From assembly GCA_964355955.1 (NCBI GenBank), contig CAYHFQ010000003.1, positions 31,777 through 95,776 of the forward strand: a stretch of DNA of 64,000 bases. The letters run 5' to 3'. Each line of letters opens with the position of its first letter. The stretch's first letter is position 1. Below are positions 5,010 to 60,667 of the stretch, one piece after another. Both the position numbers and the translations under genes were made by a program. This DNA is from an uncultured Gammaproteobacteria bacterium. GTDB taxonomy: Bacteria > Patescibacteriota > Patescibacteriia > UBA9934. The notes beneath the pieces are model-generated. The model was not told where the DNA came from and searched no databases. It worked only from the letters and a program-made list of their open reading frames with translations.

Positions 5010-6446
5010 TCAGACGTGAACGATTGAGAGTTTAGTTTCGGCGCCGTTACTGATGACGACAGCTATTTGTGAGCCGCGACGGACGAGTTTGTCGTGGTGG
5101 ATTTTTGTTTGGAGGCGAGAAATGAGAGTGCCAGGCGAGTCGGCCATAATGAGCGGGACGATGCCGGAGGAAACGATGGCGCGACGAGCTGCCGATTCGT
5201 TGGGACAGACCATGAAGACCGGAACGTCGGGGCGGAACATATTAATTTGTTGCGCGACCACGCCCTGGCCGGCGACGACAACGATGGCGGCAATGAGGCC
5301 GCTGGCAGCGAGAACGTGGACGGACTGCGCGAGGGCTTCGGCGACGTCGGGCACGCGGAGTGAGACGTGATGAATGTCGTCGTAACGCGACTTCTCGGCT
5401 TCGCGGATGACAGCGGTCATGGCGGCGACAGTGACGGCGGGATAGCGGCCAGTGGCGCTCTCGGCGGAGAGCATGACGGCGTCGGTATGGTCAAAAACGG
5501 CGTTGGCGACGTCGGAAATTTCAGCGCGAGTACCGCGTGGGTTGGTGACCATGGAATTTAACATTTGAGTGGCCACGACGACTGGCTTCCCCGCTTGGCG
5601 ACAGGCCTCGACAATATCCTTTTGAATTTCGGGAACTTCTTCAGGACGGACTTCCACGCCTAAATCACCACGGCCCAAGAGGATGCCGTCGGCGGCCGCG
5701 AGAATTTCCGGGAAGTTGTCGAGAGCAGTGCGACGCTCGACCTTAGCGAAGAACAGAGGGACGGGCACGCCAGCTGCTTTGGCAGCTGATCTGGCGACGG
5801 AGCGGGCGGTTAAGATGTCGTCGGCGCAGGAAACGAAGGATAAAGCGACCCAGTCCACGCCTTGGGCAACGCCGAAGAGGAGATCCTCACGATCTTTGGG
5901 TGTGAACGAGGCCTCGCCGACCATCGAGTCGGGAAGATTGAGACCTTTGTGAGAAGTGAGGACGCCAGGAACTTTGACCTTGGCGGTGATGTTATGACCG
6001 CGGACTTTCTCGACGACCACTTCGATGGTGCCGTCGTCGAAGAGGATGCGGTGACCGACTTTGACGTCGCGGTGCAGTGAGGCGTAAGTGACGGGAATAG
6101 CGCCGCCTGTTTTGTATGCGACGAGTGATGTTGTGAGAATTATTTTTTCGGCTTTGTGGAGAATGACGCCCTTGGCTGGCAATTCAGCGACGCGAATTTT
6201 GGGACCTTGCAAGTCCTGCAGAATAGCCACAGTTTGACCGGCTTTGCGTGCGGCGGCCCGGACAGTTTTGATGAGCCTGGCATGACTCGGGTGATCGCCG
6301 TGGGAAAAGTTAAGGCGAGCGACTCTCATCCCAGCGTTAATCATACGCACCAACATAGAGACCGAACTCGAAGCCGGGCCAATGGTGCAGATTATTTTAG
6401 TGCGCGTTTCCTCCATAATAAAATGATGATACGAGTATATCATCAT
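5010..6446 (-). CDS. pyk: Pyruvate kinase.
   Basis: KIICTIGPAS, NFSHG and MVARGDLG-type motifs. The start may instead be the internal ATG at 6416 (MEETRTKIICT). Confidence 0.9.
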   Translation of the reverse strand: MMIYSYHHFIMEETRTKIICTIGPASSSVSMLVRMINAGMRVARLNFSHGDHPSHARLIKTVRAAARKAGQTVAILQDLQGPKIRVAELPAKGVILHKAEKIILTTSLVAYKTGGAIPVTYASLHRDVKVGHRILFDDGTIEVVVEKVRGHNITAKVKVPGVLTSHKGLNLPDSMVGEASFTPKDREDLLFGVAQGVDWVALSFVSCADDILTARSVARSAAKAAGVPVPLFFAKVERRTALDNFPEILAAADGILLGRGDLGVEVRPEEVPEIQKDIVEACRQAGKPVVVATQMLNSMVTNPRGTRAEISDVANAVFDHTDAVMLSAESATGRYPAVTVAAMTAVIREAEKSRYDDIHHVSLRVPDVAEALAQSVHVLAASGLIAAIVVVAGQGVVAQQINMFRPDVPVFMVCPNESAARRAIVSSGIVPLIMADSPGTLISRLQTKIHHDKLVRRGSQIAVVISNGAETKLSIVHV

Positions 6447-14103: not shown

Positions 14104-14131
14104 ACTTAAAAGCGGGACATGACTGCCCCGC
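14104..14131 (-). terminator. Terminator downstream of ftsA. On the minus strand it reads GCGGGGCAGTCATGTCCCGC followed by TTTTAAG.
   Basis: 8-bp GC-rich stem plus a U-run on the minus strand. Confidence 0.5.
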
Positions 14132-14143
14132 CTGATGTTTAAG

Positions 14144-14177
14144 GCCCCCTCCTAACTCCCCCATAGCTGGGGGAGAG
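14144..14177. repeat. 35-nt GC-rich palindromic element (E1), plus-strand form CCCCCTCCTAACTCCCCCATAGCTGGGGGAG. It is intergenic, immediately 3' of the ftsA stop.
   Basis: Near-identical copies at 18850, 30285 and 60268 and a degenerate copy at 17095. It contains the 8-bp hairpin CTCCCCCA/TGGGGGAG. Confidence 0.65.
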
Positions 14178-14184
14178 TTTTCGT

Positions 14185-15441
14185 TTAAGGCACCATGGAT
14201 TTGAACCACTGGCCGATTTTGTTGGCCACTTGGTCCACGGATTTGAATTTGCTAAAGAATTTACCGAACTTGTTAGTGTGCATGCCTTTGATGGCATAAC
14301 CCCAAACGGCCAAGCCGATGGCCGTGGCAAAGGCCGGGTCGTGAACTTCGTCAATTACGCTGCTGATGGTGACGGGAATGCCCAAAGCACAAGGCAAACG
14401 GAGCACGCGGCGAGCGACGTCGACCATGCCGTCGAGCTTAGCTCCCCCACCGGTGAGGATAACGCCAACGGGCAACATGCCGGAACGGTCTACCTTGCGC
14501 AGTTCAGCGTCGACAGCTTCGAATAGTTCTTCGACGCGGCTCTCAATAATCTCCGCAATGAAACGACGCTTCACCACCTCGTCCACGTCGGCCCCCATGT
14601 CTTTGAGGCTGAAGGTGTGCTTGCGATCCACAGCGTCAGGAACTGCGTGACCAAACTCCATTTTTACTTTCTCCGCAATTTCTGGCGGAATGCGCAAAAT
14701 GGTACCGATGTCGGAAGTGATGCGGTCGCCACCAATTGGCAGGACGGCGGTGTGCATTAAGTCCCCTTCTTCGAAAATGGCGATGGAGGTGGAGCTGGCA
14801 CCGATGTTGACCACGCACACGCCGAGTTCTTTTTGACGTTGGGTGAGAACGGCTTCGGCGGTGGCGAGTGGCGCGTAAACCAAGTCGTCAATGTCGAGGC
14901 CGGTGCGATAAATGCTCTTGGTCAAGTTTTTAATATGTGAGGCGAGGGCCTGAATGATGACAGCGTCCACTTCTAAACGAATGCCGTTCATGCCGACGGG
15001 ATCCTTCACGCCGCGCTGACCGTCGACAGTAAAGCTCTTGGGGATAACGTGCAAAATTTCGTAGTTGGAAGGTGTGGTGACGCCTTTAGCTGCTTCCATG
15101 GCACGTTCGACGTCGTCGTCCTTAATTTCGCCGTCGGGACGAGTGACGCCAATGACGCCCCGAGTTTCTTGGACGAGAATATTTTGGCCAGCAATAGAAA
15201 CCCAAGCGGCGTTAAGGGGCAAACCGGTCATGCGTTCGGCGCGTTCCAGGGCTTTGCTGACGGCAGAAACGGCTTCTTCCATGCTGCTAACAGTGCCTTT
15301 ATGCACACCAGCCGACGGCAAAGCAACCGCACCAATAATGTGCAGGCGAGGCTTACCGTCTTCACCCGGGAGGGGCTGGGCGACAGCAATACGAATCATC
15401 GAAGAGCCGATGTCGAGACCAATGATACTTCCTTCAGCCAT
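14185..15441 (-). CDS. ftsA: Cell division protein FtsA.
   Basis: Actin-like ATPase fold motifs (IGLDIGSS, the VNIGASSTSIAIF region, ILTGGGA). 418 aa. Confidence 0.95.
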   Translation of the reverse strand: MAEGSIIGLDIGSSMIRIAVAQPLPGEDGKPRLHIIGAVALPSAGVHKGTVSSMEEAVSAVSKALERAERMTGLPLNAAWVSIAGQNILVQETRGVIGVTRPDGEIKDDDVERAMEAAKGVTTPSNYEILHVIPKSFTVDGQRGVKDPVGMNGIRLEVDAVIIQALASHIKNLTKSIYRTGLDIDDLVYAPLATAEAVLTQRQKELGVCVVNIGASSTSIAIFEEGDLMHTAVLPIGGDRITSDIGTILRIPPEIAEKVKMEFGHAVPDAVDRKHTFSLKDMGADVDEVVKRRFIAEIIESRVEELFEAVDAELRKVDRSGMLPVGVILTGGGAKLDGMVDVARRVLRLPCALGIPVTISSVIDEVHDPAFATAIGLAVWGYAIKGMHTNKFGKFFSKFKSVDQVANKIGQWFKSMVP

Positions 15442-16299: not shown

Positions 16300-17357
16300 G
16301 GCTTAGCATTAAGGTGAAAACTGTTGACCATCATCTCAAAAGTCTGCAAATATTCGATTTGACTGCGAGTGCCAAGATCGTAGGTGAGGGTTATGACCGA
16401 CGTGGCGTTATCGAGGTAAGTAGTCCTGTCGTCCGCGGTAGTTAAACCGTAGAAGCCATCTTTGGTTAGGGATTCTTTAAGTTGCTTGGCATCGTTGCCA
16501 GGTTGTTGGGCGTTATACCAGTCGGCTAAAGATTGTGTGGCAACCTTGGCCGTAGTACCAACGCTGATACTAGCTTGACGGGAAGAACGGAAAGCAATGG
16601 AGGTGCTGTCGGCTGAAGGGACTGGCGTCCAAGTCGTCGGGTAAAAGATTGTGAAAGCGAAAGCGGCGTCCGAGAAGACCTTAACAGCGCCGGTGTCGAG
16701 CAAAGTTAAAGGAGCTAAGCCGAGAGGGTCATAGCCGTGGAAGACTTCGTTGCCATCTAAATAAGTGTCCTTGTCAGAATCTGGTTCGCGGAAGTTAGTG
16801 CCGTAAAGCAGTTCCTCGATGTCGGTGAGGCCATCACTGTCAGTATCTTTGGCAGGAACAGGAATAGCAGCTTGAGCAGCAGCGGCGGCGGCATCTTGAG
16901 CAGCCTTGGCGGCGGCTTCAGCGGCGCGCTGCACTTCCTGTTGTTTGAGTTGGTTGAGTTGAGACTCGGCTAACTGTTTTTGCTGTTTGGCGGAGTCGAT
17001 TAGGCGGTAAGCAGCGAAACCGCCAGCACCGAGCACGATGAGCATGACGAAGAAGGTGATGAGGGGGCCTTTCCAGCTGTGCTTACGCTTTCGAGCCTCC
17101 CCTAGCCCCTCCATAGCTGGAGAGGGACTTACGACAGTTGGTGGAGCGACCACGGGAGGAGGAGGAGGTGGTGGAATGGGTTCTGGGCGGGGGGCGGTGA
17201 CCCCGCCTATTACTTCGGGTGATAGGCTAGCTTCGACGCCGTAAAACTCCCGCGGCATGGTGTGAATCACCACGTCAGTTGGCCCAGTAGTAGCCTCGAC
17301 GGTAGACGGTGAGGCCGTCACTGTGGGGTTAGGAGTTTTAGGCTTGCTGCCGAACAT
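16296..17357 (-). CDS. Single-pass membrane protein with a Pro-rich N-terminus and a C-terminal thrombospondin-type-3-like calcium-binding repeat (DTDSDGLTDIEE...DSDKDTYLDGNE).
   Basis: ORF translation. Paralogous in architecture to the next two genes. Contains the degenerate 35-nt element at 17095. Confidence 0.5.
   Translation of the reverse strand: MFGSKPKTPNPTVTASPSTVEATTGPTDVVIHTMPREFYGVEASLSPEVIGGVTAPRPEPIPPPPPPPVVAPPTVVSPSPAMEGLGEARKRKHSWKGPLITFFVMLIVLGAGGFAAYRLIDSAKQQKQLAESQLNQLKQQEVQRAAEAAAKAAQDAAAAAAQAAIPVPAKDTDSDGLTDIEELLYGTNFREPDSDKDTYLDGNEVFHGYDPLGLAPLTLLDTGAVKVFSDAAFAFTIFYPTTWTPVPSADSTSIAFRSSRQASISVGTTAKVATQSLADWYNAQQPGNDAKQLKESLTKDGFYGLTTADDRTTYLDNATSVITLTYDLGTRSQIEYLQTFEMMVNSFHLNAKP
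17095..17130. repeat. Degenerate copy of the 35-nt GC-rich element (GCCTCCCCTAGCCCCTCCATAGCTGGAGAGGG) inside the 16296..17357 coding sequence, encoding SPSPAMEGLGEA.
   Basis: Alignment to E1-E4; the stem is partly eroded. Confidence 0.35.
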
Positions 17358-18026: not shown

Positions 18027-18845
18027 TTATGGTTTGAGCGGATCGTGGCCGTTGGCGATCTCTACACTATCGTCGTAACCGTCGCCGTCCGTGTCCGCTT
18101 TTTGGTCGCTCGTGCCGTACTTGAATTCCTCAGCTAGGCTAAGGCCGTCATGGTCGGCGTCGATGGAAGTGAAGACGTCATGACAACTGGCGGCAAAGTC
18201 AGCGCTGAGAGTGTCGCAACCGGCTGGGTTACCGGCGGCAATGGCTGCTTCCAAGGCGGCCTGCTGGTCGCACTGATCTTCCGCGATGCCGTAAGTGCTA
18301 CAGGTACCAGCAGCTAGAATAGCCGGCAACATTTGAGCTTGGCAGCTGGCCTGACGTCTGGCTTCTTTGATGAGGTCACAAAGTTTGTAATCCTGAGCGT
18401 CGACCGCCAACAAGAAAGTGACCATGTCCTGACAGTTGCCTTTGACGTCGCCTGGCAAGGCGTCGCAAGTTTTAATCTCCTTGGTGTCGCGGGCGATGAG
18501 ATTGACGCAGTTGTTGTAGGCGGCGTCGGCTAGGCCTTCACAAGCGGTAGGGGCAGCGGCCTGACGAGCCAGATTGGACTGTGTTCGCTCGGCACAGGCG
18601 GCTGGATCCTTCTCCTGACTACAATCGGCGACTGCTTGATCAATGCGATCTTTAACGGACACGACCGAGCTTGGGACGGCGGAGTTAAGGGAATTGAGAA
18701 TGAAGATGACAATGAGAGCCACGACTGCCCCACCGACCACAATACCACCGCCGAGGAACAGCTGGTTACGGCGAACCTGGAACCACTTTTTAGGTGGTTC
18801 TGGCGGTAGGCCTGGGGTGAAGTATTGTGGCTCTAAAGTATTCAT
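18027..18845 (-). CDS. Single-pass membrane protein with a Cys-rich ectodomain and C-terminal DADHDGLSLAEE / DTDGDGYDDSVE repeats.
   Basis: ORF translation. GGAGG of element E2 lies 10 nt upstream of the ATG. Confidence 0.5.
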   Translation of the reverse strand: MNTLEPQYFTPGLPPEPPKKWFQVRRNQLFLGGGIVVGGAVVALIVIFILNSLNSAVPSSVVSVKDRIDQAVADCSQEKDPAACAERTQSNLARQAAAPTACEGLADAAYNNCVNLIARDTKEIKTCDALPGDVKGNCQDMVTFLLAVDAQDYKLCDLIKEARRQASCQAQMLPAILAAGTCSTYGIAEDQCDQQAALEAAIAAGNPAGCDTLSADFAASCHDVFTSIDADHDGLSLAEEFKYGTSDQKADTDGDGYDDSVEIANGHDPLKP

Positions 18846-18849
18846 AAAT

Positions 18850-18883
18850 GCCCCCTCCTAACTCCCCCATAACTGGGGGAGGG
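18850..18883. repeat. 35-nt GC-rich palindromic element (E2). It fills the 44-nt spacer between the giant-gene stop and the next start codon, and its AGGAGGGGG segment serves as the Shine-Dalgarno sequence.
   Basis: CCCCCTCCTAACTCCCCCATAACTGGGGGAGGG on the plus strand. The minus-strand sense is ...GGAGTTAGGAGGGGGCATTTATG. Confidence 0.65.
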
Positions 18884-18889
18884 TTTTAA

Positions 18890-21800
18890 TTACGGTGAAC
18901 AGTAGTTGAACTTGACGTTGCTGATGTTGACTTGGCCCTCGCCGGCGAAGGTGACGCGAAGTGGAAGAGTTTGTTCGGCGGACTGATCGCAGATGAAACC
19001 TTCTGGCCAAGGGATAGCCACACCGGTGCCCTCCATGACTGAACCCGAGGTAGTAGTGCCGCCGGAAGTGACGAGTGTAAAGGTAGGTTGAGTGATGGAG
19101 GCGACGATTGAGTTATAAGCGTCGGTGATGGCACTGGATGAGCTGCCGTGGTAGGCGTAGTCGATACTGGTGAGGTTGTTTGGCTGTGTTCTATCCACTG
19201 TGTAAATGGCGGGATCGTTACTCGACCAACCAGCAACCGTGCGGATGAAGCTGCTCGAGGTGGTCAAAGCGATGGTGTAGAGTTCGTAATCTGGAATATC
19301 ATCACCGTTCTCGTCGACGCCCTTAATAATATCGGCAGCGTCGGTCGTCGCGGCTGGATCATTGGCCTCGCCATCAGTCAAAAGGACAACTATTTTACGA
19401 GCATTAGTAACGGAACTTTGTGCATCAAGAAGGGTTTTAGCGGCATCAAGTCCTAGGTCCGTAGGCGTACCGCCATCGGCATCATAAAGATCGATATAGC
19501 CAGCGTATTCAGCCTCGGCAGTTGAGTCGGCGAAGGCTCTGGTAGTAACCTCTGTAACTTCCGTACAAGATGTATCTGTACTTAAGCAGCCACCTCGGTA
19601 TGTGACTAGCCCGACATGCATGTTATCTACGGAATAAAGTGCAGACAATGAGTTGGTCAGTCCCTCTTTAGCAGCATTCAACCGAGCAGATGAACCGTCT
19701 ACACGCCCATCGAAGCTCCAATTCATCGAGTTTGACAGATCCGTCACGAAAACGACGTAAACATCTGGTGCAGTCACGTTATCGAGCGAGACGTCCGCCG
19801 TGAGGGTAGCACCCAAGCGACAAGCTGGGAAGGTGATGGTAGCCGCGTTCGGAAGGTCGGAAGTGGTGCTGTCGGTGTAAGAGTAGAGGTCGACGCTGCT
19901 CGATGAGGCAGCACCTGGTTGGTTGTCGGTCATCAGCATGGCGTCGGAGAGATATGTTTCTGGGCAGGTGCTGTTACAGCTGCTGGCACAGACTGGGAAC
20001 TGACAGTCGTTGCTTGAACAGTCAGCATCCGAGAGACAAGCGACACCGAGGCCACGAGCGGTGTCTGTGCTGTCGCCGCCATTACATTGGCCGACGGTTT
20101 GGCAGACCTCGTTTTCGTTAGCAGTGCCATCGGAATTAAGATCAACCGAGAAACGCTGGCCGTTATAAGTACAAGAATTGGAACCGACTAGAGTATAGCT
20201 AGTACCGGTGCTCGTGGCGTCGTCCCATACTTGAATAGGGGAAGAATCAGAGACCAGGCGAATAGCTGGAACGTAGGAGTTTGGCAGATCGTAAGCGTCG
20301 CAGTACTCGTCGCCGTTCGCCACGCCGTCGCCGCAGAATTCACCAGAGAGGCTGGTGTACTTACAGCTGACGGAACAGGCGGTACAGGTGGATTCGTAAG
20401 CACTGGTACAGCCGGCGCCGTTGTTTACGCCCTCGTCACACTGCTCGGTTTCGAGTTCCAAGTAACCGTCGCCGCAGACGTTGGTTTTACACTGGTTGGT
20501 GCAGGTGTCGCCGGAGTCCGTGTTGCCGTCGTCACATTCTTCACCGGTATCGACCACGCCGTCGCCGCAGTTATTGAGAGCTTTGCAAGTAATGCCCTGG
20601 TAACCAGTAGCTGCATCCGTCCAGTTACAGGTGCCGCCGCTAGCCCCGTCGTCATCACAAACGCGAGTGCGGTAGGTTTGATAAGTGTTGTTTGAACAGG
20701 TGCCGCCAGCGCCACAGTCGTCATTAGTAGTACAGGCTTGGCCGACGAGGGTGGCGTCGTCGCTGAATTGGCAGACGGTGGAGACAGCACAGGCTCCAAA
20801 CGCCGGAGACTCCTCACCACCAGCGGTCAATCCACACTTTGGTCGCAAGCTCGTGCGGGATGATGAAGAGGTACCTGCCTCACATTGGCTGTCGGTCTCA
20901 CAAGCCTGGCCAGCCATGGTTCCTGATCTGTCGTTACAGATAGTGCCTTCATAAGAATCGAGGTCGCCATCACAGACTTCCCCGCTGTCGATAACGCCGT
21001 CGCCGCAGTAAGAAGCTGGACCTTGGCAGTCCCAGGCACAGGTGTTGTTCGGGTCAAATTCGTAATCACCATTAACGTAGCTGGCGCTCGTGGTACCGCC
21101 GCAGACATAGTCGACACCGCCAGTAGGACGAGCATATGTGGTGGTAGTCGAGCCACAGTCGCAAACTTCCCCACCGGCCAGGCTGCCGTCGCCGCAGTAG
21201 AAGGCGTCAACCGTAAGTGAGCAACTGGAGCCGCAGTAACCGTAACGTCCGTTCAATGAGCCGTCGTCGCAAGTTTCGCCGAGTGAGGTGTCGGTGACAC
21301 CGTCGCCGCAAGAGGAGACGACGCAGGTGGCCGAGGAGTCCGCGATGAAGGCGGAACAGGTGCTGTCGCAAACTTGAGATTGGATACCATTAGCATCGTC
21401 ATCGACCACGCCGTTAAGATCTGAATCGACCGTCAAGTCGGTATCGCAAGTGGCAGTGTCGCCACCGCGCTGACCGATTTCGCAGGCTTCCCCACCATTA
21501 ACAACGCCGTCGCCGCAGTTGCCGGTGCTGCCGTAAACGGTGGCGCCGTCGCAGAAGACTGCAGTAGTGAAGCCTTCAGCAGTACTGAGCGGGCTCGAGA
21601 CTTGGTACGTTACGGCGTCGTCGGTTGCTGTGTCGTAGTCGTAGTACCAACCAGCGGCTGCGTATTCGAGGTCAGCGTAAAGAGTGTAACTAGCGCTGCC
21701 GCCAGCTTTGTAGTGATAAACATGGCTGCCAGCTGGACAGATGTACTGGCCGTTGGCTTGGTTGACGCAAGTTGCAGAGTCGTAACTAGCTAGAGGATCT

Positions 21801-24800
21801 GCACCACAGCCGAGGAAGGCGTTGAGCGGATCCGCCAGCAATGAAGAATCACCAAGAGCGCCACCGAGCAAGTCCGTCCAAGAACCCCAGACGCTGGCAC
21901 CGAGGCCACGAACGAAGGTGCCAGAAGCGAGAGTCGGTACGTCGGAAGTGGCGTAAGTAGAGCTATAAGTGCTGACTTCGCTGCTGATAGTACGGAGATC
22001 GGACAAGCGCTTGACGTCGCGGGTAAGTTTGATTTTGTTGTTGGCACAAGTTTCGCCAGTGGCACAGTCGGCGTCTGAGGTACAAGATTTAGCCGTGTAG
22101 GCGGAACCGTCGGAACAGAGGGCGACATCGCTGACGTTGACGGCAAAGGAGAGGTTAGCGAGGAGCTGATCGTAAATAGCTTTGGTACTTTCGCTGGCAC
22201 CATCGTTGTAGGAGATGACGTAAATGTTGGGGTAGAGGGTGCTGCCACTCTCGTTAACGGCAGCGATGTAGGTGGTGCGGCCGTCTTGCACAGCCTGGAA
22301 ACCGTCCACGGTAGTAACAGATGGGCTACCCGAGAAACCCTGAGCTGTGAACCAAGCAGCTGGACTCAGGTAGTCGGAGTTGGTGACGACGCGGTAACCA
22401 ATGGCGTCGCCGCTGCCGTCGTCCACCTTGAACAAGTATTCTTTGAGAATGTTATCCGTGATGGAGTAGTCGGCGGCATTTTGGACGGTGAGGGCTGCGT
22501 AGTCGTCGGAGGTATCTTGAGCCACACCAGCGTCGCGGCAGTAGAAGTCTGAGAAGTTCATCCAGCCAGCCGAACCAAGCACGGCACCTTCTGCCAGGCT
22601 GGCGTCATCACTCCACGGGAAGGTGGCAGTCTTGATGTCTGGCCAAGTGTTTTCGCAGAGGAAGGCGATGACTTGATTGGTACCAGCCACGGCGGTGCCC
22701 TCAGAAGTACCAAATTGATCGTAATCGATGGTAGCGGTGGCAAGTACGTTAGCGTCACCGTTCTCACCAACGGCGGCGACCACTGCGGTGTCGGCGGTAT
22801 CAGCAGTTGAACCACCTGCAGTAGTGACGATGGTAGCATTCATGTCTTCTGCCCAAGCCCAGTTCCAGGAATAGACGCCGGAAAGAGATTCGATCGGCTC
22901 GCTCGTGGTGCCGTTATGGGTGTAAGCGGTGGCAGTGAAGTCGTGGCTTTCAGTAGCTTGTGAGAAGTAGCTTGGGCTCTCGGTATCACCGTCGGTTACT
23001 GACACACTATCCAAAGTACAAATTTCGGTACCAGTCGTGAAGTCCTGCCAAGCAAAACCGGCTGGGTTGAACATGGCGACGTCGTTGCTTGAGTGGACGC
23101 CTGGACGGGAGGAGTCGGTGACGTCGGCGTCGGTGATTACTTCCAATGTATAGCGAGCGTTGGCGAGCAACGGAATGTCATAGTGCATGACAACTTTGTA
23201 GTTGGTGACGCCCAAAACGTCGACAGCCTCCTGTGAGAACGAAGTGACCGGGACCACACAGTCGTTAGCGGCAGCTTCGGCGGAACGACCGGTGAATATT
23301 TGACGTACAGAAAGCCAGCCACGGGAATACCAGGCCAAGTGCGAGGTAGCGGCGATAGCTAAACGGGTATGGTCGGCCGGACAGATGTGATCTGGAACTG
23401 AACCTAAGTTGAGTTTAGCAAACATGAGAGGTTGAGCAGTGCCGCCTTCTGGTGTCGACAAGAAAGAGGCTAAGTCCATCTCTGTAGTAAAGAGGCCAGA
23501 AATTTCGGCATTGCGACAAACGTTGCGACCAGTTGGGTGCAAGGTGACGGTTGGGCGGGCCATGCAGCAGTTATTGACGCCAATGCCGACCACTTCCGGG
23601 AGTTCACAGTCGCTGTCTTGCAAAGCAGAACAGACGAGGGTGTAGGTGGAAGGGGTGAGTTCGGTTGAAATACCAGACTGAGGTTCGGTAACGTACATGC
23701 TAGCCACGGCTAAGTTGGTGTCGGGGTCGACTTCTTGAGCAGCCTGGAGGCCGATGGCTGCCAATTGCATGTCGTCGACGTTACTGTCGCCAGAGGAGGC
23801 TTCACAACCAGGGTACTCGCCCTGACCGGTGACGCCGTCGCCGCAGAAGGAAGGAATAGTGTAATCGGTAGAAGAACCAAGGTATGACGTGGCAGCTTCG
23901 GTCAAACAAGTAGCCGAACAGCCGTCACCATCCACACTGTTACCGTCGTCGCAAGTTTCGTAGAAAGGAGTAATAGTAAGGTCGCCGCAACTGGCACCGC
24001 CAATATCCGCTGAGCTAACAGAACCTTCACTCAGACATAATGAAGAACAGCCGTCGCCGTTGGCTACGTTGCCGTCGTCGCAGTCCTCGCCACCGATGGT
24101 GGTCTCGAAAGCGCGGTCATGGTTGCCGCAAGTCGCGTTAACTGAGCGCGAACCCTCGTTCAAACAAGTAGCGGAACAACCGTCGCCACTGCGCGTGTTG
24201 CCGTCGTCGCAGTCTTCGCCAGAATGATCGCCTGCTTGGTCTTGGCGACCATTGCCGCAAAGTGGAGCCCAAGTTGGACCACCGTCGCCACCCTCGCGCA
24301 AACAAGAAGCGGAACAACCGTCGCCGTCGTTAGTGTTGCCGTCTTCACATTCTTCACCGTAGCTGTTGCCAGCCCCGTCACCGATTCTACCGTCGCCACA
24401 AATGGCCGCGTACGGTTGGCTGCCGCCTGGGATACAAAGTGAAGTACAGCCAGCGGTAATACCGCTCTTGTCGGTGTCGACCTGAGCATTTGGCAACCAA
24501 CTAGCAACTTCGATCGAGCTGTTACTGCCGTCGTCGGTCCAGTCGGCAAAGCTCCAGTCGAAACCAGTGGTGGCGAGAAGCTGGCCCGAGGTGGAACAAG
24601 CGTCCATTTCACCGTAAGCGGAAACAGTGAAGTTTTGACGCTCACCAACGGTGTTGGCAGTGGCGGCTTCTGGAGAAACAGCTAAGCGATTAACAGCACA
24701 GACGTCAGTCCCCTCCTTAACGCCAAAGGTCCAGGAATAGTCACCGGTGTAATTGGTGCGGGTGAGAGCGACGCCGCTCGGAGTCGTGACGTCACCGGAG

Positions 24801-27800
24801 ATAACGACGCGATAGAATTTGCCTGGGACGAGATAGGTAGTGGCTGGCAAAACGAGATCGACCTGCTGACAATGAGTAGGAGCATCACTGGCGCAATTAG
24901 CGGCCGTGACTGTGTAGTCTGAGAATTCATCGCCGACGCCGACACTGCATAGTTCGTTAGGACAGGTATAGAGTTTAACTGCACCAGGCGCAACTAAGCT
25001 GACGGCGTCCATATCCGTGTTGAAGCTGGCACCGATTAGACCGTTACGGCAAGCCTCATTACAGCTCGGCCAAAAATCTGCGACGTAAGGATCAGTAAAG
25101 TTAATGGTAAGGACAGCGTTACCCTCAACGGCGCTGGCTCGCTCCTCTGCGGTCACGTCCGTGGTACCTTCAGCGTTGGCTTGAACGAGAGTGCAGCTAG
25201 AATTACCACCAGCGCAAACAGGGTCAGTGCTCGAGGTGAGGCCAGCGATACTATCGTCCACCGTCCAGTCGTAAACGTATTGAGTAGCGTCGAGAACTAC
25301 GCAAGCGTCGCTTGGTAAAGCGTTAAAGATATCGGTATCACCCTCCGCGTCGATGGTAGAAGTAGCTGGCGAAACTGAGACGTTGTTGACGGCACAGGCA
25401 GCACCAGTGCTCGAGACAGTGAAATGCCAAGAGGCGTTGGCAGCCATAGCAATGCCGCCAGGTGAGGAGATGGCAGCCGTGCTGACGGTGACTTTGTAGC
25501 TAGTGGCCGTGAGGAAAGGAGTGTTTGGAATCCAGGTGAAGGTAGTTGGTGAGGAGTCAGAAACCGTGAGGACACCGTCGGCCGTGATATCGGTGCCGCC
25601 AGTACAGGCGTCGCTATTACACTTTTCAATCTTCACAGCATCGTCGATCGTGCCGCGGTTCATGAGTTCTGTGAATTCGGCGTAAACTACGGCCTGTGGA
25701 CAGACTTCTGTAGTGAACGTGGAGTTTGGTACGGCACTGATGCGACCGCCGGCGGCTAAGTCACACTCGGTGACGATGGCTGGCGTGGTTGGAATGGTAC
25801 CAGTTGAGAAATACCACTGGTAAGCGGCTGGGCCAGGAGGATTGGTGGTATCAGTAGTTGAGTCACCGTAAGTGAAGTTGAGCGTGTTACTGGCGACACC
25901 TGAGGCCGAAAGAACCTGAACCGGACCAGAAGTGGCGCCACCTGGGGCCGTGACAGTTATCGTGGTGCTGTTCCAGGTACTCGTCAAGGTAGCTGGAATG
26001 CCGCTGAAGAAATTGACTGTACCGGTGGTAGAGCCGAGACTGCCAGTAATGGTGATAGTGTCCCCCGCCGCGCCAGTGTCTGGCGAGATGGAACAGATGC
26101 CAGGGCTAGGTGCGTTTGAGGTGATAGTAAAATCCGTGAGCGCTGAGGTGGCAGAATTTTGAGCGACGAGATAGATAGCGAAGTTGCTACCAGCGACGAC
26201 TGGGTCGCCGTTTTGGTAGTTAGCTGGCACGATGACCGTGACTTGAGTGTCTGACCAGTAATCAGAACAAGCGGCTGGGAAGCTGACGTCGGCCAAGGCC
26301 TTGTAACCGGAGTCTTTATTTTCGAAGAAAACCTGACCAATGTCGGCACCGAAGTTACTGCCTGTGAGCGTAATGTAGTCGCCGATAGCGGCTGAGGATG
26401 GGCTGATGCTGGCGATTGTCGGGACGGTGGTGACGGCGGTGGCCAGGCTGTAGAGAATAGTATTAGAGGCAACACCGTCGACCGTTACGCCAACCGCATA
26501 ACTGCCGTCACGAGCAGCAGGAGCGGTGACGTTGAGCGAAGTGTCGCTCCAACCGCTGTATGAACTAGCGGCGTTAGTACCGAAAGAGACAGTTGAGGTG
26601 CCCTGCGTGTCACCGAAATCGAGACCAGACAGCACGACCGCGTCGGTTGGTGCACCAGAAGTCGGTAAAAGTGAGCAAAGTTTAGGGTGGATGACATCGT
26701 TAACTACGAAGTCGTCGAAAATCTGACCGTAATCGTCGTTGCTTGAATCACTGAGTGGAGTTGTGCCGCCAGTGGTAATGGTAATTGGACCAGTCACAGC
26801 ACCGTCTGGGACCATGACGACTACGCCGGTCGACGACCAGGTAGCACAAGATGGGATAAGCGCAACGACCGTGCCGCCATCCGCCGCAGTGAAAGTTACA
26901 GTTGGCTGAACTGAGCCGAAGCCGATGCCGGCGATAGTAACAAAAGTACCAACCGCACCAGAGAGCGGTGAAATATCCGTAATTTCTGGTAATTCTGTAC
27001 AGATACCGTCGAGGCAGCTAGAGCTTGGGCCGCAGTCGGCGTCCGTGGTACAGGTGCTGCCAGTGCAAGCACCGCAATAATCTAGGCTGGTGCTATCACC
27101 GCCACAGTTGAGACCGGTTTCGCCGTGACTGGTATCAATTTCCGTATTAAAGCACCAAGGTCCACGCGCTGTAACGTGGATAGTGTCGTCGCTCGTGTTG
27201 CCGGCGATATCGGTGACGGTGGTGGCTAGTTTGTAGCTGGTTGAGTTGACCAAAGCTGTGGTATCCCAGTTGGTGGCAATAGTAGTATCGGCAAGATTGT
27301 CACCGCTCGCGCCAACTGAGTCGAACTGAACGTCTTCCGCGCTAAAACTAGCGTCGGCGACCTGGCTGTCGTCCGTGGCGTGGACCTGAACGAGAGCGGA
27401 AGAACCAGATTCAACGCTGCCGCTCGGGATAGTGATAACGGCGGTTGGGTTAGCAACGTCGACTAAGCTGCCAGTGGTAAAGGAAGATGTACAACTAGTG
27501 GTAGTACAAACAAGAGCATTACCGGTGGTACTCTTAATGGCGGTCGTAGTGGTGACGTTGTAAGTGGTGCCGTCTGGAGCGTCGTAGTCAAAGCAGTAAC
27601 GTGTTTCGTTAGGTGTTGGACAAGCAGCGTTAGGACGGAAGCTGGCGGCGTTGCCGCTAACAGTAATGGTACCGTCGACAATAGCGCCACTCGCGGCGTT
27701 GGTGACTACGAGGTTGCCGTTGAGGGTGGCGGCATCGAGATTTTTGGAGAAAGTAACGCGGAGTAAGATATTGCGGATGGCGACTGGGCCGTCAGGCGAG

Positions 27801-28273
27801 AAATCAGTGACTGTAAATGAAGAGGTGCTGCTGCTACCGCCGAATCCCCCACCACCGCTGCCATTGTCGCCAGTATTACCGCCGCCAGCACCCGTGGCGC
27901 TAATAAGAGCGGAGAGGATGAAGCTGGCAATGGCGAATGAAAGTAAGATGATGGCGAGACCGATGACACCGCGGATCAGAATTTTCTTGGCGCGTTCTAA
28001 CTTTTCTTCGTTGCCAGCGGCGGTCATCCAGGTGAAGCCACCGTAAAGAACAATGAGAACCGAGAGGATGCCGAGAACGCCAATGACGACGCGGATAATG
28101 CGAGCGATGATGATTTTTGGATCCTCCGCCGTGAGGCCAGAGGCAGCGCCGACGTTGGCCAAGCTGTCAGTTACCTGTGCTAGCAGGTGTGGGGTGTGCA
28201 AAAATACGCCAGCCGCAATGAGGCCAAGGACAGAAGGGAGAACGTATTTAAGGCGGAACCAACGCATAGCCAA
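18890..28273 (-). CDS. Giant (3127 aa) cell-surface protein. It has an N-terminal signal/two-helix membrane anchor, beta-rich Ig-like regions, many Myxococcus-type cysteine-rich repeats (CGDGxxxxGExCDDGNxxxGDGCSxxC) and a C-terminal von Willebrand factor A domain (DLSNSM MIDAS motif).
   Basis: Single uninterrupted 9.4 kb ORF. Repeats include ICGDGRIGDGAGNSYGEECEDGNTNDGDGCSASC and NCGDGVVDTGEECDDGNTDSGDTC. The C-terminus has VYVVFVTDLSNSMNW...VVLLTDGEAND. Confidence 0.8.
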   Translation of the reverse strand: MAMRWFRLKYVLPSVLGLIAAGVFLHTPHLLAQVTDSLANVGAASGLTAEDPKIIIARIIRVVIGVLGILSVLIVLYGGFTWMTAAGNEEKLERAKKILIRGVIGLAIILLSFAIASFILSALISATGAGGGNTGDNGSGGGGFGGSSSTSSFTVTDFSPDGPVAIRNILLRVTFSKNLDAATLNGNLVVTNAASGAIVDGTITVSGNAASFRPNAACPTPNETRYCFDYDAPDGTTYNVTTTTAIKSTTGNALVCTTTSCTSSFTTGSLVDVANPTAVITIPSGSVESGSSALVQVHATDDSQVADASFSAEDVQFDSVGASGDNLADTTIATNWDTTALVNSTSYKLATTVTDIAGNTSDDTIHVTARGPWCFNTEIDTSHGETGLNCGGDSTSLDYCGACTGSTCTTDADCGPSSSCLDGICTELPEITDISPLSGAVGTFVTIAGIGFGSVQPTVTFTAADGGTVVALIPSCATWSSTGVVVMVPDGAVTGPITITTGGTTPLSDSSNDDYGQIFDDFVVNDVIHPKLCSLLPTSGAPTDAVVLSGLDFGDTQGTSTVSFGTNAASSYSGWSDTSLNVTAPAARDGSYAVGVTVDGVASNTILYSLATAVTTVPTIASISPSSAAIGDYITLTGSNFGADIGQVFFENKDSGYKALADVSFPAACSDYWSDTQVTVIVPANYQNGDPVVAGSNFAIYLVAQNSATSALTDFTITSNAPSPGICSISPDTGAAGDTITITGSLGSTTGTVNFFSGIPATLTSTWNSTTITVTAPGGATSGPVQVLSASGVASNTLNFTYGDSTTDTTNPPGPAAYQWYFSTGTIPTTPAIVTECDLAAGGRISAVPNSTFTTEVCPQAVVYAEFTELMNRGTIDDAVKIEKCNSDACTGGTDITADGVLTVSDSSPTTFTWIPNTPFLTATSYKVTVSTAAISSPGGIAMAANASWHFTVSSTGAACAVNNVSVSPATSTIDAEGDTDIFNALPSDACVVLDATQYVYDWTVDDSIAGLTSSTDPVCAGGNSSCTLVQANAEGTTDVTAEERASAVEGNAVLTINFTDPYVADFWPSCNEACRNGLIGASFNTDMDAVSLVAPGAVKLYTCPNELCSVGVGDEFSDYTVTAANCASDAPTHCQQVDLVLPATTYLVPGKFYRVVISGDVTTPSGVALTRTNYTGDYSWTFGVKEGTDVCAVNRLAVSPEAATANTVGERQNFTVSAYGEMDACSTSGQLLATTGFDWSFADWTDDGSNSSIEVASWLPNAQVDTDKSGITAGCTSLCIPGGSQPYAAICGDGRIGDGAGNSYGEECEDGNTNDGDGCSASCLREGGDGGPTWAPLCGNGRQDQAGDHSGEDCDDGNTRSGDGCSATCLNEGSRSVNATCGNHDRAFETTIGGEDCDDGNVANGDGCSSLCLSEGSVSSADIGGASCGDLTITPFYETCDDGNSVDGDGCSATCLTEAATSYLGSSTDYTIPSFCGDGVTGQGEYPGCEASSGDSNVDDMQLAAIGLQAAQEVDPDTNLAVASMYVTEPQSGISTELTPSTYTLVCSALQDSDCELPEVVGIGVNNCCMARPTVTLHPTGRNVCRNAEISGLFTTEMDLASFLSTPEGGTAQPLMFAKLNLGSVPDHICPADHTRLAIAATSHLAWYSRGWLSVRQIFTGRSAEAAANDCVVPVTSFSQEAVDVLGVTNYKVVMHYDIPLLANARYTLEVITDADVTDSSRPGVHSSNDVAMFNPAGFAWQDFTTGTEICTLDSVSVTDGDTESPSYFSQATESHDFTATAYTHNGTTSEPIESLSGVYSWNWAWAEDMNATIVTTAGGSTADTADTAVVAAVGENGDANVLATATIDYDQFGTSEGTAVAGTNQVIAFLCENTWPDIKTATFPWSDDASLAEGAVLGSAGWMNFSDFYCRDAGVAQDTSDDYAALTVQNAADYSITDNILKEYLFKVDDGSGDAIGYRVVTNSDYLSPAAWFTAQGFSGSPSVTTVDGFQAVQDGRTTYIAAVNESGSTLYPNIYVISYNDGASESTKAIYDQLLANLSFAVNVSDVALCSDGSAYTAKSCTSDADCATGETCANNKIKLTRDVKRLSDLRTISSEVSTYSSTYATSDVPTLASGTFVRGLGASVWGSWTDLLGGALGDSSLLADPLNAFLGCGADPLASYDSATCVNQANGQYICPAGSHVYHYKAGGSASYTLYADLEYAAAGWYYDYDTATDDAVTYQVSSPLSTAEGFTTAVFCDGATVYGSTGNCGDGVVNGGEACEIGQRGGDTATCDTDLTVDSDLNGVVDDDANGIQSQVCDSTCSAFIADSSATCVVSSCGDGVTDTSLGETCDDGSLNGRYGYCGSSCSLTVDAFYCGDGSLAGGEVCDCGSTTTTYARPTGGVDYVCGGTTSASYVNGDYEFDPNNTCAWDCQGPASYCGDGVIDSGEVCDGDLDSYEGTICNDRSGTMAGQACETDSQCEAGTSSSSRTSLRPKCGLTAGGEESPAFGACAVSTVCQFSDDATLVGQACTTNDDCGAGGTCSNNTYQTYRTRVCDDDGASGGTCNWTDAATGYQGITCKALNNCGDGVVDTGEECDDGNTDSGDTCTNQCKTNVCGDGYLELETEQCDEGVNNGAGCTSAYESTCTACSVSCKYTSLSGEFCGDGVANGDEYCDAYDLPNSYVPAIRLVSDSSPIQVWDDATSTGTSYTLVGSNSCTYNGQRFSVDLNSDGTANENEVCQTVGQCNGGDSTDTARGLGVACLSDADCSSNDCQFPVCASSCNSTCPETYLSDAMLMTDNQPGAASSSSVDLYSYTDSTTSDLPNAATITFPACRLGATLTADVSLDNVTAPDVYVVFVTDLSNSMNWSFDGRVDGSSARLNAAKEGLTNSLSALYSVDNMHVGLVTYRGGCLSTDTSCTEVTEVTTRAFADSTAEAEYAGYIDLYDADGGTPTDLGLDAAKTLLDAQSSVTNARKIVVLLTDGEANDPAATTDAADIIKGVDENGDDIPDYELYTIALTTSSSFIRTVAGWSSNDPAIYTVDRTQPNNLTSIDYAYHGSSSSAITDAYNSIVASITQPTFTLVTSGGTTTSGSVMEGTGVAIPWPEGFICDQSAEQTLPLRVTFAGEGQVNISNVKFNYCSP

Positions 28274-30208: not shown

Positions 30209-31333
30209 CTAGGTTGTGGAGAACATTTTAGCGATGGCGGTTTTTAGTTCTATCAGGCCTGTTTTGGCGTGTGCGGAAACTACAACGCCCCCTCTAACTC
30301 CCCCATAGCTGGGGGAGGACGTACTCAAAAGTTTTTTGATGGTGGCCGGCTTCTTGATGGCGTCGATTTTATTGTAAACGATGAGACGTGGATGGTCCGC
30401 GATATTCAACTGCTGCAGCACATCATCGACCACCGCCATCTTAGCAACGTACTTGGGATCAGCCACGTCGACGACCTGCAAAAGTAAATCGGCGTTAGCG
30501 GCTTCGGAGAGCGTGCTGTGAAAAGCGCGGATGAGCTGGGGTGGGAGGCCGGCGATGAAGCCGATGGTGTCCGAGAGTAAAATAGTCTCGTTAAGTTCAG
30601 GAATATAAACGTCGGCCACGCGCGTGTCGAGGGTGGCGAAGAGCTTATCCGCGGCGTATTCCTGGCGTTTACCGAGCGCATTTAAGAGCGACGTCTTGCC
30701 GGCGTTGGTATAGCCGACCAAGGCGACGGTTTTCTTTTCTTGGCGTCGACGATGCTGTTGGTGCTGGTCGCGCACGCTTTGGCACTTCTCGAGCTTCTGC
30801 AAAATCTGCTTTTCCTGCTCGCGTAAGTGGCGCTTCATCGCTTCCGTGTTGCCTTCCCCACTACCGCCGACTGTACCACGACCACCGCGTTGACGGCCGA
30901 GTTCCGCACCCATGTTGAAAATACGGGGGCCCATGTGACGCAAACGGGCTAGTTCGATTTCCAGCTTGGCCTCGCTCGTTTTAGCATGTTTGTCGAAAAT
31001 GTTGAGAATGAGGTCGATGCGATCCCAGACCTGTATTTTGGCACCACGAAGCAGCTCTTCGAGATTGAAAATTTGTTGCGGCTTTAAGACTTCGTTAATG
31101 ATGAGCAAATCGGCACCGAGCAACTTGCCTTCTGCCACAATCTCCTCCACCTTGCCGCTGCCGATGTAGGTGCGATTGTCGGGCTTAGCGCGACGCTGGA
31201 CGGTTCGGACGACGGCTACTCCCCCGTACGTCTTCGTCAATTCCTCGAGCTCAGCGAGACGCTCTAAAGCCTCGGCCTTCGGCACGGTGTAATGAACGAG
31301 GTCGGCGAGAATGGCGCGGCGAAGTGTGGGCAT
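30209..31333 (-). CDS. hflX: GTPase HflX.
   Basis: HflX N-domain plus G-domain (VALVGYTNAGKTSLLNAL, DTIGF, NKID). The C-terminal region carries the in-frame 35-nt element (SSPSYGGVRGG). Confidence 0.9.
   Translation of the reverse strand: MPTLRRAILADLVHYTVPKAEALERLAELEELTKTYGGVAVVRTVQRRAKPDNRTYIGSGKVEEIVAEGKLLGADLLIINEVLKPQQIFNLEELLRGAKIQVWDRIDLILNIFDKHAKTSEAKLEIELARLRHMGPRIFNMGAELGRQRGGRGTVGGSGEGNTEAMKRHLREQEKQILQKLEKCQSVRDQHQQHRRRQEKKTVALVGYTNAGKTSLLNALGKRQEYAADKLFATLDTRVADVYIPELNETILLSDTIGFIAGLPPQLIRAFHSTLSEAANADLLLQVVDVADPKYVAKMAVVDDVLQQLNIADHPRLIVYNKIDAIKKPATIKKLLSTSSPSYGGVRGGVVVSAHAKTGLIELKTAIAKMFSTT
30285..30318. repeat. 35-nt GC-rich palindromic element (E3) inserted in-frame in hflX, encoding SSPSYGGVRGGV.
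   Basis: The minus-sense sequence TCCTCCCCCAGCTATGGGGGAGTTAGAGGGGGCGTT translates to S S P S Y G G V R G G V. Nucleotide sequence is near-identical to E1, E2 and E4. Confidence 0.6.
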
Positions 31334-53569: not shown

Positions 53570-54520
53570 TTAACGGCGGCTTGGCCCTGATGGACGAAAC
53601 TCGCTTTCGATTTCACGCCGCTTCCCTTCTGTTATTTCAGCCCTGAGCTCCTTGAGTTTCTCGTCCCATATTTCGCGTCCATACTCATAAATACCAGACT
53701 CGCCGAGTGCGTTTCCGTATTCTTCCCCTGTAATACCGATGTCACTATATAAATTCGTCCCACCTGACTTAAACTCTTGCGCTACTCGAGCATTAATCCA
53801 GCCTTCTTTATCCTGCGCCAGCGGTTCCGCGAGTGCCGATTCCTGCATATATGTCTTTTGCTCATCAAGCGCATCGCTGCGTAAGGTTTCTAGCGCACCA
53901 TCCATTCTACTGATCGCGATCTCTATTTTAGACATCTCATCATCGGCGAAGGTGAAATATGCTGACATGAGATACGAGAAATCGCGTTCTTCAGCGTATG
54001 TATCGAAAGCTGCTTTATTATTCTCTTGCGTATATTCCGGTCCGCGAACAAAGGCACGAACTTTTCCGTCATGTGCACCAAATGGGTGTGCGCCTTCATG
54101 CATTATTACTTCCATTGGCCAACCACCGTCTGCGCGGATGGCAATATAAGAGGGTTGAAAAATGGCTGGATGAAAGATTCCTCCGAGTTTCGACCCGTCG
54201 GTTCCTGCGAATTTCCAGCCATCATCAGGATCAAGCGCAAAAACATTTCCCTCACTCTTTTTTTGTAAGACTAAATCAAAGGTTGCTTGCACGTCAGCGA
54301 CAAAATGATCCGCTCCTTTCTTGTTGCCGCCAAAGGCGAATTTTTCATCTGCTGATTTTCCAAGACTCTCCACAAAAGGAAGTGACGCCTCGATTTGGCT
54401 TAGGCGATCATCAAACACGATCTCTTCTGCCTCCGTAAGGTCGCGAATTGGGATGCCTTGGCAGGCGGCGGAACAAAGAGCCATGCCTAGTGCTAATGCC
54501 TGATGGGAATGTGTAGTCAT
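53570..54520 (-). CDS. Putative secreted/lipoprotein zinc metallopeptidase (HExxH).
   Basis: N-terminal signal-like ALALGMALCSAAC and IMHEGAHPF. Confidence 0.45.
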   Translation of the reverse strand: MTTHSHQALALGMALCSAACQGIPIRDLTEAEEIVFDDRLSQIEASLPFVESLGKSADEKFAFGGNKKGADHFVADVQATFDLVLQKKSEGNVFALDPDDGWKFAGTDGSKLGGIFHPAIFQPSYIAIRADGGWPMEVIMHEGAHPFGAHDGKVRAFVRGPEYTQENNKAAFDTYAEERDFSYLMSAYFTFADDEMSKIEIAISRMDGALETLRSDALDEQKTYMQESALAEPLAQDKEGWINARVAQEFKSGGTNLYSDIGITGEEYGNALGESGIYEYGREIWDEKLKELRAEITEGKRREIESEFRPSGPSRR

Positions 54521-59950: not shown

Positions 59951-60667
59951 TTAATCGATGCGGTGAATCATGATGTCGCCCCAGGTACTATTCTGAGTTG
60001 TACGGATGATGTTGCGGCGGAGGAGTTCGAGGAGAGCCAGAAAGCTCATGACGACGTCGATCTTCTTTTGGGCGCCGGCTGTAACTTGATTGAAGCTGAG
60101 GCTGGCGTTTAAGGAAATGGCTTCGCGAAGTTCGTCGATCCGTTCCTCAACTGACTTTACTCGCTCCAACGAGACTGCCGTGAGGGCGAAGAAGGGCTCG
60201 AGGCGTTTTTGGATGTCGCGGTAGGCGTCGGCGAGAGCGGAAGCTGTCGGTGGCCTCCCGCCGAAGTTCAAGCCCCCTCTAGCTCCCCCATAACTGGGGG
60301 AGGACTTTACATACGGCCGGGGGAAGAGGAGGTGCTGACCGTAACGTTCCTCGAGGCGTTCGGCAGCGTCCACGAATTCGCGGTAAATGCGGAGTTGCTC
60401 GGCCAGGACGTCTGAGGCGAGGTCTTCGTCGACCAGGCGCAGGAACGGGAGTAGTTCGCGGCTTTTGAGGTAAATGAGGCGGGAGGCGACGAGGAGGAAG
60501 TCGGCCAGGCCGTCGGCGGGGACGTGAGTTTCTTGTAAGTACAGCAAAAAATCGTCAGCAACTTTGGCTAACGAAATTTTGGCTATCTCGAGGTCCTTCT
60601 TTTCTATGAGCTCGAGGAGGAGCTCCAGAGGACCCGAGAATTCCTCGTTTTTGACGGCGAAATCCAT
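59951..60667 (-). CDS. scpA: Segregation and condensation protein A. It carries an in-frame copy of the 35-nt element.
   Basis: ScpA N-terminal motif FSGPLELLLELI. Internal KSSPSYGGARGGLN is encoded by the element at 60268-60302. Confidence 0.85.
   Translation of the reverse strand: MDFAVKNEEFSGPLELLLELIEKKDLEIAKISLAKVADDFLLYLQETHVPADGLADFLLVASRLIYLKSRELLPFLRLVDEDLASDVLAEQLRIYREFVDAAERLEERYGQHLLFPRPYVKSSPSYGGARGGLNFGGRPPTASALADAYRDIQKRLEPFFALTAVSLERVKSVEERIDELREAISLNASLSFNQVTAGAQKKIDVVMSFLALLELLRRNIIRTTQNSTWGDIMIHRID
60268..60302. repeat. 35-nt GC-rich palindromic element (E4) inserted in-frame in scpA, encoding SSPSYGGARGG.
   Basis: Minus sense TCCTCCCCCAGTTATGGGGGAGCTAGAGGGGGCTTG, in the same frame as the hflX copy. 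Confidence 0.6.

Follow-up and report, generated by a model that had tools for sequence, protein, structure and literature searches.

Rickettsia palindromic elements (RPEs), reportedly described by Ogata and colleagues in 2000, are short palindromic repeats dispersed in a small genome, many of them in frame within essential genes, whose tolerant regions gain a peptide segment, and others intergenic; close relatives differ in the copies they have. The REP/BIME sequences of Enterobacteria and Pseudomonas consist of imperfect 20-40-nt palindromes, fold into a stable hairpin, and have intergenic copies lying just after stop codons. MITEs such as Correia/NEMIS in Neisseria and ERIC in Yersinia alter the expression of neighbouring genes; they are small non-autonomous repeats, and when inserted near a gene they may either provide expression signals or hide them. 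The repeat analysed here resembles each of these in part. It is a multicopy dispersed palindrome with a stable hairpin, found in frame in conserved genes whose orthologues are devoid of it and also in intergenic regions just after stops, and one intergenic copy, E2, carries a G-rich segment directly upstream of a start codon. Literature searches for palindromic or RPE-like elements of the Candidate Phyla Radiation brought up no description of such a family.

The repeat and its distribution

The window, that is, the whole stretch of 64,000 nt analysed, belongs to a relative of the Uhrbacteria genome UBA11707 and not to UBA11707 itself; in both, a copy of the repeat is found at the orthologous place in scpA (L020 in UBA11707). 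A first analysis, made from the letters of the window only (the sequence-only reading), had reported a 35-nt element present in four copies. The repeat is real, as the full-length 34-mer had two matches in the window and its 20-nt core four, compared to none in 100 shuffles. The conserved unit, however, spans about 43-44 nt, not 34-35, and the window contains five copies, not four, the fifth being a diverged one (E5). Coordinates are reported in Table 1.

Table 1. Coordinates of the repeat copies and of the features discussed in the text
Feature	Location	Positions	Strand	Remarks
E1 repeat copy	window	core 14144-14177; whole element about 14139-14181	-
GC-rich hairpin followed by UUUU	window	14108-14132	-	separate from E1, terminator-like; located past E1 and ahead of the NUDIX gene ATG (14096)
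E5 repeat copy, diverged	window	17090-17132	-	in frame in the 353-aa gene, encodes ...VVSPSPAMEGLGEA...
ATG of the 272-aa gene	window	18843-18845	-	ORF 18027-18845
E2 repeat copy	window	18846-18889	-	whole copy, occupies the complete 44-nt gap
E2 G-rich tail, SD-like	window	18850-18858	-	GGAGGGGGC; from sequence and anti-SD duplex energy
E2 hairpin	window	18861-18882	-	CCUCCCCC / AGUUAU loop / GGGGGAG(U), about -16 kcal/mol (fold)
TAA stop of the 3127-aa surface-protein gene	window	18890-18892	-	ORF 18890-28273
E3 repeat copy	window	30281-30324	-	in frame in hflX, aa 338-349 TSSPSYGGVRGG
E4 repeat copy	window	60267-60310	-	in frame in scpA, aa 121-132 KSSPSYGGARGG
Composite copies	L010, L021, L023-L026, L028, L032, L034, L037, L046, L047, L049
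Second, unrelated repeat	L054	10715-10740
Second, unrelated repeat	L056	5884-6000; 10783-10850

The sense-strand consensus is G(T/A)AAAC(C/T)-CTCCCCC-AG(C/T)TAT-GGGGGAG-nn-GGAGGGGGC-(T/C)TTAA. As RNA, the sense strand folds into a CUCCCCC/GGGGGAG stem closed by a loop of 4-6 nt (about -16 kcal/mol). A subfamily, designated B, has the arms CCCCTCC/GGAGGGG and the tail GGGGAGGC. The sequence of the diverged copy E5 is GTAAGTC-CCTCTCC-AGCTAT-GGAGGGG-CTA-GGGGAGGC. From subfamily A to B, a change in one arm is compensated in the other, and the tail co-varies with the arms; this argues that hairpin and tail together belong intrinsically to the repeat and are under constraint. The G-rich tail was present in nearly all copies, regardless of location. 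Rfam was searched with the entire window at the gathering threshold, and with the surroundings of E1 and E2 at E <= 1, and returned only tRNAs and one chance match; the repeat is outside any described RNA family.

A scan with the core, using one genome per species, gave 49 loci. Copies in which the core is followed by the GGAGGGGGC tail were concentrated in Patescibacteria MAGs: about 19 in the Uhrbacteria UBA11707, about 10 in DeMMO3_42, and further ones in two LJ bins, in LacPavin and in two Hainich groundwater bins. When metagenomes were scanned with the core pattern, only two relevant copies were added, L062 and L064, of which L064 duplicates L001; the other matches were unrelated hairpins. 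All five window copies are oriented along transcription, while both orientations were encountered in related genomes (about 19:12). Neither a transposase nor a donor element could be recognised, and the same holds for a target-site duplication. The ends of the element, TAAAsCCC...GGGsTTTA, are roughly inverted, and comparison of the filled and empty E2 sites showed a 43-nt gain without clear duplication.

A longer, two-hairpin version of the repeat was observed in many copies in two MAGs labelled uncultured Gammaproteobacteria, CAYFME01 and CAYPRR01. In this composite version, hairpins A and B are inverted, with GGACTCCACGTGTCA between them and a G-rich tail on each. These MAGs are either misassigned bins, or they hold a cross-phylum relative of the element.

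Copies within genes

The 36 Patescibacteria copies were classified according to the ORFs that span them. About 29 of them (about 80%) lie deep within open stretches of 218-802 codons, and their hosts, judged by inspection, appear to include FtsK, a P-type ATPase, UvrC, TatD, a type-II NADH dehydrogenase (Ndh), RseP, glycosyltransferases and a CCA-adding enzyme. With a coding fraction of 0.91 in the window and 17-19% of copies in intergenic positions, the repeat is placed nearly at random as regards coding and non-coding DNA. The coding copies are read in two forward frames, as VNPPPAMGE(L/M)EGA and SPSYGG.(R/G)GG, and in one reverse frame, as APS.SPIAGGE. Since a single DNA unit is thus read in three frames, what is repeated is the nucleotide sequence rather than a motif of the protein.

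That the element also occurs as an in-frame coding insertion had been noticed from the sequence, and this extends from HflX and ScpA, whose copies (E3 and E4) use one common reading frame, to the roughly 29 ORFs of related genomes. E3 adds 9 aa (27 nt) to HflX compared to 13 relatives, namely the closest one, 88% identical, and 12 others. In this closest relative the empty site reads ...AAATCAGCTATTTTAG... (L068, 1690-1710), and it already contains CAGCTAT, which corresponds to the loop of the element and the adjacent base. E4 is located in a variable linker between two Pfam-matched ScpA stretches, with a net gain of 4 aa (12 nt). E5 lies in a Pro-rich linker of the 353-aa protein, where the orthologues have unrelated sequence of almost equal length, so that the net length change is about 0. 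An attempt to derive a clean insertion length and a target duplication from these copies failed, the net changes being +27, +12 and about 0 nt. Rather than clean insertions, these copies resemble replacements that took the flanks with them.

Replacement of linkers by segments of similar length (+27 nt in hflX, +12 in scpA, about 0 in the 353-aa gene) would be in keeping with a recognition sequence, such as a DNA-uptake signal or a protein-binding site, accumulated by biased recombination and not by transposition. The loop sequence already found in the empty hflX site goes in the same direction, and Patescibacteria are thought to rely on DNA uptake. Against this, the density is low (5 copies per 64 kb), point mutation cannot produce an identical unit of 43 nt, E2 is a clean gain of 43 nt in a 1-nt spacer, and no uptake or binding protein is linked to the element. 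We see hardly any chance that the repeat is of this nature. In the reading that we prefer, the repeat would spread in several Uhrbacteria and other Patescibacteria genomes in the manner of RPEs, landing almost at random with respect to coding sequence; copies within genes would survive where one reading frame stays open, in a tolerant linker, and others would survive in very short intergenic spacers.

Two further cases concern genes of related genomes. In the Ndh orthologues of UBA11707 (L009) and H52-bin134 (L019), the element is found in reverse orientation at the same protein position, before a T/MxWxGGV motif, and reads KAPSSSPIAGGEF and SAPSGSPIAGGEP, respectively; the shared position reflects either an old insertion or a hot spot. 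In a Hainich groundwater contig (L062), one glycosyltransferase ORF contains three related peptide copies, MTAPSNSPMTGGG, MTAPPSLPMT and MTAPSNSPIAGGG, suggesting that the repeat landed or was duplicated several times in one gene.

Intergenic copies and the junction at E2

Intergenic copies had been described as sitting at gene ends. As a matter of position this is correct; for five of the six, the distance from a same-strand stop to the first base of the copy is 3-10 nt. It has little significance, however, because the median same-strand gap in the window is 25 nt (no more than 20 nt in 46% of cases), and in a genome that is 91% coding such proximity is trivial. For the first of these copies, E1, the upstream gene is ftsA, whose product matches FtsA and SHS2_FTSA (the Pfam screen covered ten window proteins). 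E1 starts 3 nt after the ftsA stop (14185-14187) and its hairpin 9 nt after that stop. The earlier description of E1 as preceding a terminator agrees with a separate hairpin followed by UUUU, which starts 6 nt after the element; this hairpin was not among the results of a consensus terminator scan. The C-termini of FtsA (...GQWFKSMVP*) and of the giant surface protein upstream of E2 (...KFNYCSP*, not truncated) are the same in relatives, so that E1 and E2 are true post-stop insertions.

The possibility that the TAA of the element itself makes the upstream stop, by C-terminal truncation, is ruled out for E1 and E2 by these same C-termini. Such a stop may have been made in L045a, where the stop is 3 nt before the core, and possibly in L040. 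A role of E1 and E2 as sense-strand terminators was likewise rejected: no U-tract follows the hairpin on this strand, where UUAGGAGG is found instead. On the + strand, positions 14156-14175 and 18862-18881 read as a hairpin followed by TTTT and were flagged as terminator-like; there is no + strand gene nearby.

The proximity to stops, together with the stability of the hairpin, the hairpin-then-TTTT arrangement of E1 and E2 on the + strand and the compensatory arm changes, could also be accounted for by a REP-like RNA hairpin acting at cistron 3' ends, in exonuclease protection, processing or antisense termination. We hold this to be highly doubtful. Such a role makes no sense for the 80% or so of copies located in ORFs, and this coding majority is poorly accounted for both by a REP-type function and by a recognition sequence. 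Moreover, proximity to stops is expected with a median gap of 25 nt, the sense strand lacks a U-tract and E1 is followed by its own separate hairpin and U4. As for antisense termination, between about 9.6 and 37 kb of the window every long ORF is on the - strand, and the region of E1 and E2 has no + strand genes.

To position the six intergenic copies relative to start codons, the spacer between GGAGG and the first start further downstream was measured, counting ORFs of 60 aa or more. It was 8 nt for E2, 39 nt for L003, 51 nt for E1 (with the hairpin and U4 in between) and 129 nt for L007; L038 faces a convergent gene and is without a downstream start, and L045a is without the G tail. An SD (Shine-Dalgarno) distance was therefore found for E2 only, and the bias toward start codons that might have been anticipated from E2 is absent. 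Several coding copies (L001, L002 and L016) do have an ATG after them at an SD-like distance; it is an internal in-frame codon of a long ORF. In L003 (1257-1305, from an LJ Uhrbacteria bin), the element adjoins a promoter-like TTGAAA-17-TACAAT, the -35 of which starts at the TTAAA end of the element; from this promoter-like sequence to the ATG of the next gene, which is SMC-like, there are 9 nt.

At E2, the coordinates bear out that the element occupies the whole gap between the stop of the giant gene and the next ATG; read on the - strand, the gap is TTAAAACCCTCCCCCAGTTATGGGGGAGTTAGGAGGGGGCATTT. The G-rich segment had been placed about 10 nt before this ATG. By the coordinates, GGAGG is 8 nt and the last G of GGAGGGGG 5 nt upstream. 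The ATG at 18845 is well supported by comparison as the start of the 272-aa gene: it is called as the start on four independent contigs, and the orthologues (70-81% identity) are also 272 aa long and align from residue 1. The protein is membrane-anchored at its N-terminus and ends in a TSP3 repeat. E2 itself is fixed, being found in contigs from four samples; the E2-positive strain occurs in ERZ4201063 and SRR4754859.

The syntenic block, comprising the giant gene, the 272-aa gene, the TSP3 gene, the 353-aa gene, ybeY, dgkA and ftsA, is kept in relatives, which allowed the orthologous junctions to be compared. In L054 (sample ERZ18648440; 81% identity of the 272-aa orthologue) the junction is ...ccctTTAAtATG, and in L055 (sample SRR22388344; 74%) it is ...gccTTAAtATG; both are thus TAAtATG, and the net insertion at E2 amounts to 43 nt. 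In the more distant L070 (44%) the junction is TAGcgtgaactATG; L071 (46%) has a 137-nt spacer ending in ...cgcactATG, and L056 (70%) a 117-nt spacer. No SD was found before the orthologous ATG in any of these five loci, and no intact copy of the repeat was present in the 12.8-kb syntenic loci L054 and L056 or the 6.1-kb locus L055. Among close relatives, the ancestral junction appears to be a 1-nt stop-start spacer, the classic arrangement for coupling, and E1 and E2 appear to be lineage-specific copies of the dispersed palindromic repeat.

Two observations on these junctions may be added. In L056, a half-element, GTAAATCCCCCTCCAGCTATG, is located directly after TTAAt at the E2-equivalent junction (5884-5905) and is followed by a different repeat, which suggests that one site was hit repeatedly, or that TAAT is a preferred target. 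This second, unrelated repeat, AGGGGTCAGGTCnGGAATCGrG.ATTTTnCGAATTCnTTGG, does not occur in the window. Two relatives have it behind the stop of ftsA, and in L056 it also follows the stop of the giant gene.

SD usage in the lineage was assessed on ORFs of 150 aa or more that have ATG as their first start, no further than 60 nt from the preceding stop in the same frame. The duplex energy of positions -20 to -3 with CACCUCCUUU was calculated, and -4.4 kcal/mol or stronger was counted as a match. Matches were found upstream of 15% of 27 window genes (26% for the in-gene control), 7% of 14 genes in loci L054-L056 (71% for the control) and 11% of 44 genes in the UBA11707 loci (23% for the control). 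SD-like sequence before starts is depleted, not enriched, and the lineage does not appear to use SD for initiation. The gene downstream of E2 is the single outlier: its -10.9 kcal/mol is the strongest anti-SD match of the window, and the next first-start value is -6.9. Upstream regions are AT-rich, with T at -1 in 23 of the 27 window genes, and a -10-like box lies 6-10 nt before several ATGs, for example TACAATcaggtcATG at the scpA start (60667) and TATACTATG at the gene 53570-54520. These features suggest that leaderless or very short-leader mRNAs may be widespread. The 3' end of the 16S gene was sought in the window and the fetched loci and none was found, the only 16S sequence being a 5' fragment at the end of L003. 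In Parcubacteria, the anti-SD motif was detected in only 48% of 16S genes (PMC9297842).

We conclude that E2 is probably a copy of the repeat inserted by chance in a coupled junction, its likeness to an SD being a by-product. A copy would have entered, in forward orientation, the 1-nt spacer of the ancestral stop-start junction (TAA-t-ATG), and such an entry places the invariant G-rich tail 5-8 nt before the ATG. The SD likeness would then come from the C-run/G-run architecture of the element and not from selection for ribosome binding, in a lineage that would initiate without SD and rely on tight stop-start junctions, on AT-rich upstream regions with T at -1 and, for some genes, on a -10-like box directly ahead of the ATG. 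We infer a mechanism of mobility of this kind, and a neutral or nearly neutral effect of E2 on the downstream gene. Several points fit this explanation less well: the GGAGG of E2 stands at textbook spacing in the one orientation that gives such a placement, the organism may have a functional anti-SD, the window copies all run along transcription, neither a transposase nor a donor element came to light, and the replacement-like coding copies are unexplained by simple transposition.

Splitting TAAtATG by 44 nt and a hairpin of -16 kcal/mol ought to have a cost, so that a compensating SD is not unreasonable. The tail of E2 might have been exapted, pairing with the 16S anti-SD or retaining terminating ribosomes, and would then sustain initiation or re-initiation. 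Its geometry (GGAGG 8 nt before the ATG), its duplex energy, the 1-nt spacer of the ancestral junction and the presence of E2 in all four samples are in keeping with this. In short-context folds the tail is also single-stranded, because the C-arm prefers the proximal G-arm; in a 160-nt context, however, the mean unpaired probability of the GGAGG is 0.37, as CACCCC located 30 nt inside the downstream ORF can pair with it. The lineage and its relatives show no SD enrichment, the five orthologous junctions are without SD, no other copy is at SD distance, and the incidence of the anti-SD motif in Parcubacteria is low. Coding copies have the tail as well, and selection is therefore not required to explain it at E2. 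On balance, we regard an exapted SD as unlikely. Somewhat more speculative, and quite unlikely in our opinion, is the proposal that, in a lineage that has given up SD initiation elsewhere, a mobile repeat with a portable hairpin-plus-GGAGG creates SD-led or standby-site initiation on entering a coupled junction and so maintains expression of the downstream gene, with E2 retained by selection for its tail.

The sequence-only reading had proposed a hairpin/RBS module that donates the SD. The geometry at E2 is as described, while the function finds no support in the 51-nt spacer of E1 or in the lineage, which has no SD signal. As a general property of the repeat, SD donation is contradicted by the five orthologous junctions without SD and by the location of about 80% of copies in ORFs.

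Comparison with known systems

The repeat family is a more valuable result than the SD claim. Uhrbacteria appear to have been colonised by a short palindrome, about four-fifths of whose copies are in frame, including in the essential ftsK, uvrC, hflX, scpA and ndh, and the family shows how proteins of ultra-small genomes may gain linker insertions. A perfect GGAGG at a perfect spacing can be an accident of a G/C-rich repeat landing, notably in a non-SD lineage, and for annotation the repeat will mislead ORF callers and RBS models. The window and loci L054/L055 form a natural pair, with and without the insertion, for the study of translational coupling in uncultured bacteria.

The likeness of E2 to a canonical SD lies in its GGAGG-type motif, within 5-10 nt of a genuine start; it differs in that this GGAGG is part of a repeat with the same tail almost everywhere, in a host lineage without SD enrichment and at a junction where orthologues do not conserve it. 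E1 and E2 differ from intrinsic terminators in having no U-tract after the hairpin on the sense strand, TTTT being found on the antisense only. Correia/NEMIS and ERIC exceed 100 bp, and their terminal inverted repeats and TA duplications are clear; in comparison, E2 is without visible target duplication. REPs are extragenic by definition, whereas about 80% of copies of this repeat are in ORFs; REPs also have a 5' GTAG, which a RAYT transposase recognises, and a usual arrangement in clusters, whereas this repeat is found singly and begins with GTAA (5' consensus G(T/A)AAAC, not GTAG). RPEs are about 100-150 bp long and belong to Alphaproteobacteria, whereas this element is about 43 nt long and belongs to Patescibacteria, and several of its coding copies replace sequence rather than add to it. 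Homology to RPE-1 to RPE-10 is unlikely, given the difference in phylum and length and no apparent sequence relation. By analogy of organization, the family nevertheless appears nearest in kind to the RPEs, and would represent a new family of Patescibacteria.
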